Of a stretch of DNA of 64,000 nt, positions 26,687 to 36,161 are shown piece by piece; the stretch's first letter is position 1, and the number at the start of each line of letters is the position of its first letter. Under the pieces are notes generated by a model. The model made no database searches. It worked only from the letters and a program-made list of their open reading frames with translations, and was not told the origin of the DNA. This stretch comes from an uncultured Flavobacteriales bacterium (GTDB taxonomy: Bacteria > Bacteroidota > Bacteroidia > Palsa-965). A program made the position numbers and the translations under genes. The stretch lies in NCBI GenBank assembly GCA_903873905.1, contig CAIQQJ010000145.1, positions 10,439 through 74,438 on the forward strand, written 5' to 3'.

Positions 26687-26828
26687 ATTTCATTTCGAAT
26701 TTGCACGAATATACGAATCATTATAGGCCTTTATTGTAATTTAAAAAATCCCTATTTTATAAATGAAAATTTCTGTTTTAAACTATTTCGGAGCAGGGAA
26801 ATTTTAGTTCTCCACTTACACCTTTCGC

Positions 26829-26894
26829 GCTTTCCGCTGCAAGTCTCCCAACCCCAACAATTCTGTTGGGGTTGGGAGGCTTTACGCTGCAATC
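26829..26894. repeat. REP-like element: GCTTT(C/A)CGCTGCAA direct repeats bracketing a perfect 15-bp hairpin
   Basis: CTCCCAACCCCAACA (26845-26859), ATTC loop, TGTTGGGGTTGGGAG (26864-26878); flanking motif copies at 26829 and 26879. Confidence 0.75.
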
Positions 26895-26932
26895 ACGGCT
26901 ATTTCCGAACATCCCAGTTTCAAACAAAAAAC

Positions 26933-34733: not shown

Positions 34734-35372
34734 ATGAAAGTAGAAATCTGGTCGGATGTAATGTGTCCGTTCTGTTATATCGGGAAACGTAAATTTGAAA
34801 ATGCACTTTCAGAATTTGATCATAAAGGTGAGGTAGAAATTATCTGGAAAAGTTTTCAGTTGAATCCTGCAATGAAAACCGAGCCCGGAAAAAATATCAA
34901 TCAATATCTTGCAGAACTGAAAAGTTGGTCGATTGCAGAGGCGAAAGAAATGAACGATCGTGTTTCAGGAATGGCAAAGGAAGTTGGCTTGAATTATGAT
35001 TTCGACAAGGCGATTGTTGCGAATTCTTTTGATGCACATCGACTCATACAATTTGCCAAGACCAAGAAAAAAGGTGATGAGGCGGAAGAGCGAATTTTCA
35101 AAGCCTATTTCACTGAAGGGAAAAACACGGATGATCATTCAACACTTCTTCAACTTGGAAAAGAAATCGGATTGGATGAAAATGAATTGAAGGAAATATT
35201 GGAAAGTGAAAGGTTTTCACAGGAAGTCCATAATGACATCGAAGAGGCGCAACTAATTGGAGTAAGAGGTGTTCCTTTTTTTGTGTTTGATAGAAAGTTG
35301 GCTGTTTCCGGTGCACAACCTCAACAGGTTTTCATGGACACATTAAAGAAAGCTTGGAAAGAGAAAAATTGA
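34734..35372 (+). CDS. DsbA-family (FrnE-like) oxidoreductase
   Basis: WSDVMCPFCYIG; GVRGVPFFV...SGAQP. Confidence 0.93.
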   Translation: MKVEIWSDVMCPFCYIGKRKFENALSEFDHKGEVEIIWKSFQLNPAMKTEPGKNINQYLAELKSWSIAEAKEMNDRVSGMAKEVGLNYDFDKAIVANSFDAHRLIQFAKTKKKGDEAEERIFKAYFTEGKNTDDHSTLLQLGKEIGLDENELKEILESERFSQEVHNDIEEAQLIGVRGVPFFVFDRKLAVSGAQPQQVFMDTLKKAWKEKN

Positions 35373-35488
35373 AATGTCCTTAGTGGATTTTTTTGATTTT
35401 CAGGATATTTGGGTGTGATTAATGTTCCCAATACAGTGCAAATCAGTGATTCGCCAAAAAATCAAGGAATTATTTGACTAACGTTTTT

Positions 35489-35510
35489 TCCCGAAGGGAC
35501 CACCCTGTGG
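35489..35510 (-). repeat. 22-nt double-hairpin insert, copy 1 (inverted)
   Basis: TCCCGAAGGGACCACCCTGTGG is the reverse complement of CCACAGGGTGGTCCCTTCGGGA; absent from the intact repeat copy. Confidence 0.95.
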
Positions 35511-35540
35511 TAATACGATCTGTTTATTATTTTTGCGACG

Positions 35541-35562
35541 CCACATAGTGGTCCCTTCGGGA
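35541..35562 (+). repeat. 22-nt double-hairpin insert, copy 2 (loop variant ATA)
   Basis: CCACATAGTGGTCCCTTCGGGA between tRNA G1 and G2 of the duplicated fragment. Confidence 0.95.
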
Positions 35563-35597
35563 GAGAAATGGCAGAGTGGTCGATCGCGGTAGTCTTG

Positions 35598-35619
35598 CCA
35601 CAGGGTGGTCCCTTCGGGA
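35598..35619 (+). repeat. 22-nt double-hairpin insert, copy 3
   Basis: CCACAGGGTGGTCCCTTCGGGA inside the anticodon (TG^A) of the duplicated fragment. Confidence 0.95.
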
Positions 35620-35652
35620 AAAACTATTGACTGTAACAATAAATTTTATTTT

Positions 35653-35895
35653 ATGTTTTTTACATATATCCTGTTAAGCAAGGTGGATGGGAAATATTAT
35701 TATGGAAGTTGTGCTAATATTGAAATAAGGTTGAAGGCCCATAACAGTGGTAAAGTTCGATCAACAAAAGGACGTCGGCCACTTGTGCTACATTACCAAG
35801 AATCCTTTGACACAAAATCTGACGCAATAAGACGAGAAAACTTTTTTAAATCCATTGACGGCTATAATTGGCTAAAAAATCAAGGAATTATTTGA
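35653..35895 (+). CDS. Small GIY-YIG nuclease (UPF0213/YhbQ/Slx1-like), 80 aa
   Basis: FTYIL.S....YYYGS.....RL..HNSG....TK.RRP....E.F.....A..RE...K pattern; ATG at 35653. Confidence 0.92.
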   Translation: MFFTYILLSKVDGKYYYGSCANIEIRLKAHNSGKVRSTKGRRPLVLHYQESFDTKSDAIRRENFFKSIDGYNWLKNQGII

Positions 35896-35923
35896 CTAAC
35901 GTTTTTTAATACGATCTGTTTAT

Positions 35924-35931
35924 TACTTTTG
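35924..35931 (+). promoter_or_regulatory. -7 box TACTTTTG of tRNA-Ser
   Basis: TAnnTTTG 5 bp upstream of the tRNA. Confidence 0.7.
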
Positions 35932-35935
35932 CGAC

Positions 35936-36020
35936 GGAGAAATGGCAGAGTGGTCGATCGCGGTAGTCTTGAAAACTATTGACTGTAATAGGTCCGGGGG
36001 TTCGAATCCCTCTTTCTCCG
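35936..36020 (+). tRNA. tRNA-Ser (anticodon TGA), CCA not encoded
   Basis: Acceptor stem GGAGAAA/TTTCTCC; D arm GCAGAGTGGTCGATCGC; anticodon arm GTAGT-CTTGAAA-ACTAT; long variable arm; GGGGG-TTCGAAT-CCCTC; discriminator G. Confidence 0.97.
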
Positions 36021-36026
36021 CGGAAT

Positions 36027-36072
36027 AAATGAAAAATCCTTTGAACTCGAGAGTTTAAAGGATTTTTCATTT
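36027..36072. terminator. Long hairpin, probable terminator after tRNA-Ser
   Basis: AAATGAAAAATCCTTTGAACTC-GA-GAGTTTAAAGGATTTTTCATTT. Confidence 0.75.
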
Positions 36073-36161
36073 TAAGACTTTTTGATCACAAAATTGCTCG
36101 ATTAGAAAAAACCCCCTCTTTTCAGAAGGGATTTTCATTAAACAGGATACTTAAATTCCAT

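Follow-up and report, generated by a model that had tools for sequence, protein, structure and literature searches.

The tRNA-Ser(tga) locus of an uncultured Flavobacteriales bacterium carries three copies of a 22-nt unit made of two abutting hairpins, next to a gene for a small GIY-YIG nuclease. We analyzed this locus within a 64,000-nt stretch of contig CAIQQJ010000145.1 (assembly GCA_903873905.1; hereafter the window) and compared it with the rest of the genome (G000; 3.93 Mb in 181 contigs, 38% G+C, rated 100% complete), with other genomes of the genus and class, and with metagenomes. The unit is a double-hairpin (DH) insertion module, the local form of class-wide palindromic modules that accompany tRNA-associated GIY-YIG cassettes. 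The cassette consists of the nuclease open reading frame (ORF), an adjoining intact tRNA gene on the same strand and, beyond the ORF, a spare copy, partial or whole, of that tRNA, whose D, anticodon and T loops are interrupted by modules. Nuclease clades have palindromes of their own, and both tandem arrays and decayed copies of the cassette occur. At the level of sequence comparison, the link between module and nuclease cassette is real and general.

Double-hairpin units at the tRNA-Ser locus and across the genome

The locus contains two copies of a 115-nt repeat, A' and A, arranged around the nuclease gene (Table 1). The repeat comprises the last ~21 nt of the GIY-YIG ORF, the tRNA-Ser promoter region and the 5' part of the tRNA up to the variable loop. 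As the original prediction had described, copy A' is interrupted by three 22-nt units; all three were exact matches to CCACnnnGTGGTCCCTTCGGGA, and none of 100 dinucleotide-preserving shuffles of the window contained any match. Units 1 and 3 were identical, and unit 2 differed from them in a loop (AGG vs ATA), with identical stems across the three, so that variation is confined to a loop as had been proposed. The ATA loop is the commonest variant genome-wide. Upon removal of the three units, A' was 115 nt long and 114 of these bases were identical to copy A, with one T/C difference. Insertion was therefore precise, as predicted, with neither target duplication nor deletion. The predicted insertion points (the promoter-upstream region, tRNA G1^G2 and the anticodon at TG^A) were also recovered, and the units split A' into blocks of 33, 30, 35 and 17 nt. 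tRNA-Ser(tga) is the single tRNA gene in the window (ARAGORN and Rfam). Homologous-recombination integration of a small segment, the GIY-YIG gene plus A, in the tRNA region would give the observed A'-GIY-YIG-A layout.

Table 1. Positions in the window of the features discussed in the text
Feature	Positions	Strand	Remark
DH unit 1, loop AGG, inverted	35489..35510	-	28 nt upstream of G1 of the copy
DH unit 2, loop ATA	35541..35562	+	G1^G2 of the tRNA copy
DH unit 3, loop AGG	35598..35619	+	G^A of anticodon TGA, after tRNA nt 36
Upstream partial repeat copy A' with three units	35456..35636	+	181 nt
Downstream uninterrupted copy A of the 115-nt repeat	35874..35988	+	
80-aa single-domain GIY-YIG gene (Slx1/UPF0213-like)	35653..35895	+	same strand as tRNA
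Intact tRNA-Ser(tga)	35936..36021	+	sole tRNA-Ser(tga) gene found in the assembly
Terminator-like inverted repeat, then T run, 3' of tRNA	36033..36073	+	read by eye from the sequence
Flavo-1 repeat (RF01705) without unit	26819..26904	-	'empty' example

The locus was also confirmed beyond the assembly. Twenty public lake or freshwater runs from 8 studies contained at least half of the sampled words of positions 35300-36100, and we compared the Logan contigs (contigs, not reads) of four runs from four studies with the locus. A 448-nt contig of run X7 matched 35456-35903 with 0 differences, and two contigs of run X1 matched 35460-35592 and 35568-35903, also with 0 differences. In run X11, a 692-nt contig across 35300-35890 showed 5 substitutions and 1 indel, all outside the units; the contigs of run X17 do not span the units. 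One matching run may be the source sample of the genome itself. We observed no empty allele among the locus contigs, which lose rare variants. One X17 contig linked 35599 to 35935 and omitted 335 nt, its shorter side being 31 nt; this joint is probably the collapse of a 35-nt exact repeat. The 24 listed runs included no RNA run and have no bearing on expression.

We observed many related units elsewhere in the genome. The pattern proposed from the window gave 14 exact matches in G000 and 43 at up to 4 mismatches. When we searched for TCCC-nnn-GGGA hairpins abutted by any 4-bp/3-nt hairpin, we obtained 43 places, 37 of them outside open frames of at least 150 codons; the remaining 6, within open frames, look mostly like chance matches. 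In a count made without presupposing the first hairpin, 56 TCCC(TTC/TTT/TAT/TAC)GGGA hairpins had an abutting 4-bp/3-nt hairpin on their 5' side in 36 cases and on their 3' side in 1, compared with ~0.2 by chance. The stems of the first hairpin were CCAC (22), TTCC (7), CTCC (4), TGCC (2), TCCC, CCCC and TCAC, and were always complementary; the loops of the second hairpin varied (TTC/TTT/TAT) while its stems stayed conserved. Structure and polarity are therefore conserved and the sequence is variable. These counts bear out a micro-insertion far below the size of a miniature inverted-repeat transposable element (MITE), and the features that define MITEs were absent: the unit consists of two different hairpins, has no single terminal inverted repeat and makes no target-site duplication.

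About 20 units occupied one identical point of a modular repeat with ~100 copies, at least 48 of which were 'empty' at that point. The host repeat corresponds to Rfam Flavo-1 (RF01705), which had 71 matches in the genome at E <= 1e-3, 10 of them above the gathering score; the copy in the window scored 53.7 bits (gathering score 42). The text of PMC9723704 that we consulted gives no function for this motif. In the consensus structure of Flavo-1, this point falls within an internal loop of 3 unpaired nt. Six further units lay between GATTACA-type words, by the other end of Flavo-1-like repeats, and others lay inside GTTGGAAA-, GGTAATT- and GATGTGCA-type tandem words. Read in unit orientation, the flanks had G at -1 in 35 of 44 cases (mostly TG), A at +2 in 37 of 44 and A at +3 in 32 of 44, many of these rows sharing ancestry. 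Unit sites are always unpaired or repeat DNA, mostly ..TG^RAA.., and never show a target duplication; the target preference sought in the original prediction thus exists, as TG^RAA flanks and unpaired junctions. Each Flavo-1-like repeat is itself modular: its two halves, of ~23 nt, resemble each other, and hairpin modules are exchanged and reassorted among the copies. One of these modules, GTGTCGGGT..ACCCGACAC, also flanks a Y1 transposase gene (C106:81549-81824).

Partial tRNA copies were a second kind of host. Among 33 tRNA genes, 3 had an upstream partial 5' copy bearing a unit: Ser(tga), Arg(tct) and Arg(ccg). The tRNA-Arg(tct) copy (C62:130-204) carries its unit between anticodon nt 34 and 35, and C89, a contig overlapping C62, ends in at least 2 further tandem copies with a unit at that site; the units in these copies run antisense. 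At tRNA-Arg(ccg) (C66:36897-37045), a 26-nt 5' copy with a D-loop unit lies directly upstream of the intact gene. Spare tRNA copies, which amount to a few hundred bases, held five independent units, compared with ~40 in an estimated ~400 kb of intergenic DNA. The enrichment of units in spare tRNA copies is strong. As a whole, the tRNA-Arg(tct) array has at least 3 partial 5' copies (C62:31-204, C89:15650-15825) upstream of the intact gene, and the assembly breaks inside it. We also observed a 3' half-copy of tRNA-Cys (C66:21431-21618) edged by another hairpin module, CCCAACAG..CTGTTGGG.

The GIY-YIG nuclease and its cassettes

The 80-aa protein matched the Pfam family GIY-YIG (PF01541; E 2.2e-13, residues 1-66 of 80). 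Its closest solved structures were the UPF0213 proteins 1ywl (E 1.7e-7) and 1zg2 (E 1.4e-5), and NCBIfam gave only a sub-threshold match to a group I intron endonuclease (19.4 bits, cut-off 56). A 2006 survey placed 1ywl and 1zg2 in a bacterial Slx1-like branch of minimal stand-alone domains whose role it gave as unknown, and described eukaryotic Slx1 as a structure-specific nuclease acting on branched DNA (PMC1564403). The genome contains five PF01541 matches, three in small genes (C15, C40 beside tRNA-Ala, and C145) and two within 606- and 466-aa open frames. A tblastn search of the genome with the 80-aa protein returned only the protein itself. A search for a phage origin gave just 4 weak tblastn matches (38-44% identity) among 50,697 phage records. 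The third small GIY-YIG gene lies within an array of ~130-nt repeats of the GTCAGACTGAGTAGCCGAC.. family (C15:16700-17702). This repeat family bears DH units in genomes G006 and G007, and in G006 filled and empty copies stand side by side (L059).

The exact unit, at up to 1 mismatch, occurred 24 times in G000, once and twice in two of 24 other genus genomes, and not at all in 16 genomes of other families. We searched 27 genus genomes with the 80-aa protein, found homologs in 21 and fetched 30 loci. A tRNA gene was present in 23 of the 30, and in the loci read in detail it directly adjoined the ORF on the same strand. The neighboring tRNAs were Ser-tga, Ser-gga, Arg-cct, Arg-tct, Ala-ggc, Asp-gtc, Met-cat and Val-gac. 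All 7 of the closest homologs with a full-length, uninterrupted ORF (57-72% identity; one each in G018, G012, G008, G003 and G002, two in G019) were accompanied by a spare tRNA-Ser with a 19-22-nt DH unit in the anticodon, D or T loop.

The layout of these seven cassettes varied. In G018, the intact tRNA is followed by a terminator, the nuclease gene, a 3' copy running from the D loop onward with its unit at TG^A, and then an integrase gene. The unpublished genome G012 has the same layout, with units at TG^A and in the T loop. One G019 locus (C12) is a tandem array with a 437-bp period, each consisting of the nuclease gene and a tRNA-Ser 3' fragment, with the unit at T-loop TTC^GAATCC. In G008 and at the other G019 locus (C38), the order is promoter, near-full tRNA-Ser(gga) copy with D-loop and anticodon units, nuclease gene and intact tRNA, and the stop codon of the nuclease abuts tRNA G1. 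A single unit was present in G002 (D loop) and in G003 (anticodon). The cassette lies upstream of the tRNA in some loci and downstream in others, and tandem arrays occur; like the decayed copies described below, these features agree with a selfish life cycle. A tyrosine-integrase-like gene lies just 3' of tRNA-Ser in both G018 and G019.

Decayed nuclease genes were found in G023 (stop codon), G022 and G006 (both truncated), in each case without an interrupted spare copy nearby. At the tRNA-Ser(tga) site beside DsbA in G019, the position is empty except for ~20 nt that resemble the 3' end of the ORF. The DsbA/tRNA-Ser neighborhood in G019 (L038), G022 (L034) and G023 (L036) presents stages of decay of the nuclease gene: the ~20 nt remnant in G019, a truncated 3' part in G022 and the stop-containing copy in G023. 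The genus genomes are too distant in intergenic DNA for pairing of filled and empty sites (the DsbA flank is ~67-69% identical), and a metagenome scan for near-identical strains gave nothing above 69% protein identity, with records of the window's own genome possibly excluded. Unit-like words (GKVVTCCCnnnGGGA) numbered 55 in G000, 60 in G012, 27 in G013, 19 in G024 and 0-11 in each of the others (23 genomes), compared with 0-1 on either strand for a control pattern. The bursts in G013 and G024 are mainly of the TCAC..GTGA plus TCCC-TCC-GGGA type.

Beyond the genus, a class sample of 151 genomes contained 42 with a homolog at E <= 1e-8 and contributed 27 further loci, 21 of which contain a tRNA gene; a metagenome scan added 39 loci. 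Among the pooled nuclease loci (n = 93, L063-L158; genus, class and metagenomes), a tRNA gene lay within 400 nt in 69, and extra pieces of that tRNA were present in 49. We identified 25 clean insertions between collinear tRNA pieces: 10 interrupted the anticodon, 9 the D loop and 3 the T loop, and the other 3 were at positions labeled as stem. Of 190 ends of tRNA pieces, 122 fell at unpaired positions, for which tRNA composition predicts 44.5%, and the anticodon triplet accounted for 18.9% of piece ends (4.2% expected). Tandem arrays of tRNA pieces are frequent beside small GIY-YIG genes, for example at L110, L112 and L114.

At position 36^37 of Ser(tga) copies, loci in families f11 and f13 and on two metagenome contigs carried two abutting hairpins of 22-30 nt with other sequences, and one of these inserts equals the TTCC-type variant of G000. 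Further palindromes accompanied other nuclease clades. Copies of tRNA-Arg(cct) carried a ~60-nt palindrome starting CCCGCCCG in the D loop and at the border of variable loop and T stem. Hairpins of 29 and 41 nt interrupted copies of tRNA-Met and tRNA-Arg(tct) at T-loop TTC^GAG. Copies of tRNA-Ala had 14-nt hairpins, one tRNA-Arg(tct) D loop had a perfect palindrome of 20 nt, and a tRNA-Glu anticodon had a double hairpin of 28 nt. At L085 (G008) and L072 (G001), a full-length second tRNA-Arg(cct) with two ~60-nt palindromes adjoins the intact copy and the GIY-YIG gene.

We built a maximum-likelihood tree from 48 nuclease sequences (87 columns). All tRNA-Ser-associated nucleases fell into one clade (support 87/98). 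Within it, a Ser(gga) subclade (88/93) had GTCC..GGAC plus CTCC..GGAG units, and the genus Ser(tga) subclade (85/74) had TCCC-type units. An Arg(cct/ccg) clade (100/98) had CCCGCCCG-type palindromes in common across two families. The tRNA labels required 28 changes on the tree, compared with a shuffled mean of 33.8, and 0 of 200 shuffles were as low. The co-variation of GIY-YIG phylogeny with palindrome type that the original prediction proposed as a check was thus positive, in that clades have palindrome types of their own, in a small sample of related rows.

Proposed mechanism and alternative explanations

We lean, with modest confidence, towards a joint account of cassette integration, breaks in loops, repair by copying of modules, survival of the modules in spare copies and benefit to the cassette. 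The cassette would enter a tRNA locus by recombination, and the A'-U-A arrangement at the window locus (U, the nuclease part) would reflect Campbell-type integration of a 352-bp U+A segment. The nuclease would then nick or break the DNA in an exposed loop, or the lesion would arise from fork stalling at these hairpin-prone, highly transcribed genes. Repair may proceed by short-patch copying of a module already present, with the 2-4 nt of identity in the flanks as primer. Insertions in the essential tRNA copy would be lethal and would be purged, which would leave insertions visible in spare copies and other structured DNA that is dispensable, and nowhere else.

The cassette may benefit from such insertions in two ways. 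Units would cut the direct repeat into its 33-, 30-, 35- and 17-nt blocks and so curb loss of the nuclease gene by recombination; blocks of these lengths are below that needed for efficient RecA recombination. Units would also split loop words, for example the T-loop word favored by the phage homing endonuclease SegB, and so curb repeated cutting.

A further reading is possible but doubtful: minimal Slx1-like nucleases and clade-specific palindromes may together form a new enzyme/micro-element system, the GIY-YIG counterpart of repetitive extragenic palindromic (REP) sequences and their RAYT transposases. At tRNA genes, the nuclease of that system would recognize branched DNA or exposed loops, and it would install or move 20-60-nt hairpin modules. 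In its boldest form, the hairpin-tagged spare tRNA would be the targeting part, with the hairpins as protein handle and the tRNA segments as address, and a domain-only nuclease would take its specificity from nucleic acid and not from a DNA-binding domain. The tRNA segments flanking the hairpins are almost always 100% identical to the real gene. The original prediction held that the nuclease mobilizes or recognizes the unit; the association with cassettes and the clade-matched palindromes agree with this, and we found nothing that shows cutting or movement of the unit by the nuclease.

Several observations weigh against the account that we favor. The predicted association of units with GIY-YIG genes and tRNAs held at the comparative level (69 of 93 nuclease loci with a tRNA gene). 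Within G000, 40 of the 43 units are away from any GIY-YIG gene and both tRNA-Arg unit loci have none nearby. No Ser-clade GIY-YIG gene was found by our query in the burst genomes G013 (82% complete) and G024 (99% complete), in which the same query returned only a nuclease of the tRNA-Ala clade; G018 and G019 have a Ser-clade nuclease yet no burst of units. The loop of the unit follows the Flavo-1 subtype (TAT with GTTACCC, TTC with GAAAGCCC), and the copy number of Flavo-1 units may come partly from multiplication of the host repeat, not from separate insertions. The 80-aa protein has no auxiliary or DNA-binding domain. The predicted DNA fold of the unit is a double hairpin, and a weak one (-3.6 kcal/mol; z -0.7 to -1.6 vs shuffles); these z-scores are not significant, and folding energy alone is therefore no evidence. 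Many forks of the nuclease tree are open, and one of the four genus Ser(tga) loci, like the word count for G012, comes from an unpublished genome. The intact tRNA beside the nuclease is uninterrupted. The suggestion that units immunize cut sites can therefore not be the whole logic of the cassette.

Some of these points are what one would expect if the unit were a passenger, a hairpin module with no dedicated enzyme that spreads by slippage, microhomology template switching and host-repeat multiplication. As part of this explanation, which we consider rather improbable, the dispensable, highly transcribed and hairpin-rich tRNA copies would merely tolerate insertions. Flavo-1 provides evidence for it: ~20 of the 43 units sit at a single junction there, with the variant following the host subtype, and other hairpin modules reassort in the same repeats, one such module edging the tRNA-Cys 3' duplicate. 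The TG^RAA preference is identical to the flanks of the commonest donor context. The units in tRNA-Arg spare copies and the bursts in G013 and G024, both without the relevant GIY-YIG gene, agree with it as well. A passenger module would leave unexplained why palindrome types are clade-specific across families, why units lie in or beside the cassettes of G018 and G019, genomes with just 4-9 unit-like words, and why abutting hairpins of unrelated sequence recur at 36^37.

Movement in trans by a RAYT-type Y1 (IS200/IS605) transposase, which would insert a REP-like element or a REP doublet forming a hairpin (REPIN) as single-stranded DNA 3' of a short word, appears very unlikely. The genome has three PF01797 genes, and the absence of duplication, the polarity of the unit, its single-stranded targets and the 5' flank TG would suit such an enzyme. 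The same features, namely no duplication, a fixed polarity and a TG 5' flank, emerged from comparison with palindrome-associated transposable elements (PATEs) derived from IS200/IS605, from whose known ends the unit differs in being far shorter and in having no linked TnpA. We searched for a link at the three Y1 genes and did not find one: the ~400 nt around each contain no unit, the hairpins that do flank them are different, and an explanation of the unit by a RAYT/IS200 enzyme, which the original prediction had named as a refutation, is thus not borne out. The hairpin that flanks the Y1 gene on C106 is a module found inside many Flavo-1 repeats. The TCCC-stem hairpins by the Y1 gene on C137 have 4-nt loops and are confined to that locus (18 strand-wise matches, C135/C137). 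The ends of the unit, which starts CCAC and ends GGGA, lack a GTAG or CGTC tag, and the association with cassettes would be unexplained. At C137:1-700 and C135:1-320, we observed a Y1_Tnp gene preceded by repeated ATCCCGTTAGGGAT and GTCCCTTTAGGGAC hairpins, which occur at that locus only.

Spread at the RNA level is, if anything, slightly less probable still. The module would enter loops of abundant RNAs, such as tRNA precursors or Flavo-1 transcripts, and return to DNA via reverse transcription and recombination. The targeted loops do belong to RNAs of known fold, units in tRNA-Ser copies are mostly in sense orientation, the genome has one reverse transcriptase gene, and cyanobacterial small dispersed repeats reportedly offer a precedent. 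Orientation and location also speak on the other side, as unit 1 is inverted and lies upstream of the transcribed part, the units in tRNA-Arg(tct) copies are antisense, and units occur in heptamer-type repeats with no known RNA. Nothing ties the reverse transcriptase to the unit.

We give very little credence to mini-introns, that is, to interrupted copies as working tRNA genes from whose RNA the hairpins are spliced: the insert positions recall non-canonical archaeal tRNA introns, and a full-length copy of tRNA-Arg(cct) in one relative carries two palindromic inserts, but the copy in the window has none of the 3' part of the tRNA and adjoins an intact gene, and the tRNA splicing endonuclease PF01974 was not found in G000 (100% complete) by a search that was positive in 4 control archaea. 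Large tRNA 'introns' of 668-1422 nt called by the intron mode of ARAGORN (C43, C94, C106) lie in coding sequence and are spurious. An assembly or adapter artefact is of negligible probability: the assembly is fragmented and the locus contains repeats, but contigs from different studies (X1, X7 and X11) agree through the units, and related units occur at 43 places in the genome and in other species.

Relation to known systems

If the favored account is correct, it would provide a function and a natural substrate for the common, uncharacterized stand-alone bacterial Slx1/UPF0213 GIY-YIG proteins. The unit would be a third, mechanistically distinct mobile DNA near the lower size limit (~22 nt), now with a candidate enzyme, and such an enzyme would make the movement of tiny repeats experimentally approachable. 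The cassettes also account for odd annotations in Bacteroidota-like genomes, including partial tRNA genes, tandem tRNA fragments and small 'hypothetical' nucleases by tRNAs. A nuclease guided by structure or by the tagged tRNA copy, if this one proved to be so, could find use as a very small enzyme of programmable or structure-specific action. At least 8 studies have lake metagenomes containing the organism, so that units can be followed in nature as they are gained and lost.

The original prediction knew of no characterized system of this form. This stands for the three-part module of minimal GIY-YIG gene, tRNA and loop-interrupted spare copy, for which the literature searched contained no description, and the supplements of SegB and REP papers may list more tRNA-linked GIY-YIG genes. 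It does not stand for tiny mobile hairpin repeats, which have precedents in the cyanobacterial and mitochondrial elements compared below. On the enzyme side, 1ywl- and 1zg2-type UPF0213 proteins share the minimal GIY-YIG domain and are the best structural match; they differ in that the consulted text of the survey names no tRNA neighborhood or palindrome partner for them, its 3 mentions of tRNA concerning a TrmH fusion (PMC1564403).

SegB, a GIY-YIG homing endonuclease of T4/T6 phages, cuts in tRNA genes with preference for a T-arm word, and it drives recombination-dependent tandem amplification of tRNA and nuclease segments (PMC13096335); it serves as the precedent for the mechanism that we favor. 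The resemblance lies in a nuclease gene beside a tRNA, here with tandem partial tRNA copies and arrays flanking the nuclease genes. As in free-standing homing endonucleases, the gene lies by its target (69 of 93 loci), the distribution is patchy, and decayed copies (G022, G023, G006) and an empty site (G019) are found. SegB is larger and has DNA-binding parts. It is also a phage enzyme, whereas the protein described here has 80 aa, is chromosomal and belongs to the Slx1-like branch; the part of the SegB study consulted mentions no palindromic inserts at SegB loci.

Archaeal tRNA introns and tRNA genes in pieces have short inserts in the D, anticodon and T loops, where the working gene is interrupted and a splicing endonuclease removes the insert. 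The cassettes differ from them in that an intact gene adjoins, most copies are partial and the search for PF01974 was negative.

REP/REPIN-RAYT systems combine short extragenic palindromes, a rare and possibly cognate enzyme gene, insertion without target duplication and mosaic repeats (PMC3116915, PMC3733652), and a REP palindrome is defined as carrying the tetranucleotide GTAG or CGTC as a tag on one of its ends (PMC3733652). The unit resembles them in its many extragenic copies (43 units, 37 outside open frames of at least 150 codons), a moderate number and not hundreds. It differs in that it has no tag, that the candidate enzyme is GIY-YIG and not HUH/Y1, and that the cis partner lies inside tRNA copies. 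The original idea of a REP/RAYT-like element with another enzyme was thus partly right: the logic is similar, the tag and the flanking of a Y1 gene are absent, and the role of the nuclease is a putative one.

Small dispersed repeats (SDRs) of heterocystous cyanobacteria, as Elhai et al. reportedly described in 2008, are 21-27 nt long, have a conserved fold and lie in tandem heptamers and minitransposons, and an RNA intermediate is said to have been proposed for them. The 22-nt unit is likewise precisely inserted inside repeats, of the GGTAATT, GATTACA and GTTGGAAA types and of Flavo-1. A comparable precision is seen in SDR5, which inserts between nt 3 and 4 of the highly iterated palindrome HIP1 (PMC4390886). 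SDRs belong to another phylum, have other sequences and are not known to be linked with tRNA copies or a nuclease gene, so that the unit works alike and is not a member.

Mitochondrial double-hairpin elements (DHEs) are very short, consist of two stem-loops, are dispersed in intergenic regions and structural RNA genes, are deemed mobile, and may have identical copies across species (PMC10085805). The unit shares with the fungal mitochondrial DHEs the two stem-loops, stems that are conserved or compensated (at least 7 variants) and the dispersal. Paquin, Laforest and Lang are said to have observed in 2000 that the loops of DHEs are more variable than their stems. DHEs differ in being mitochondrial and G+C-rich with no known enzyme partner, and the part of the DHE literature consulted describes neither targeting of tRNA loops nor a nuclease cassette; the bacterial unit works in a similar way and is not one of them. 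By shape and behavior, the unit is closest to mitochondrial DHEs and cyanobacterial SDRs; by its logic, it is like REP/RAYT.

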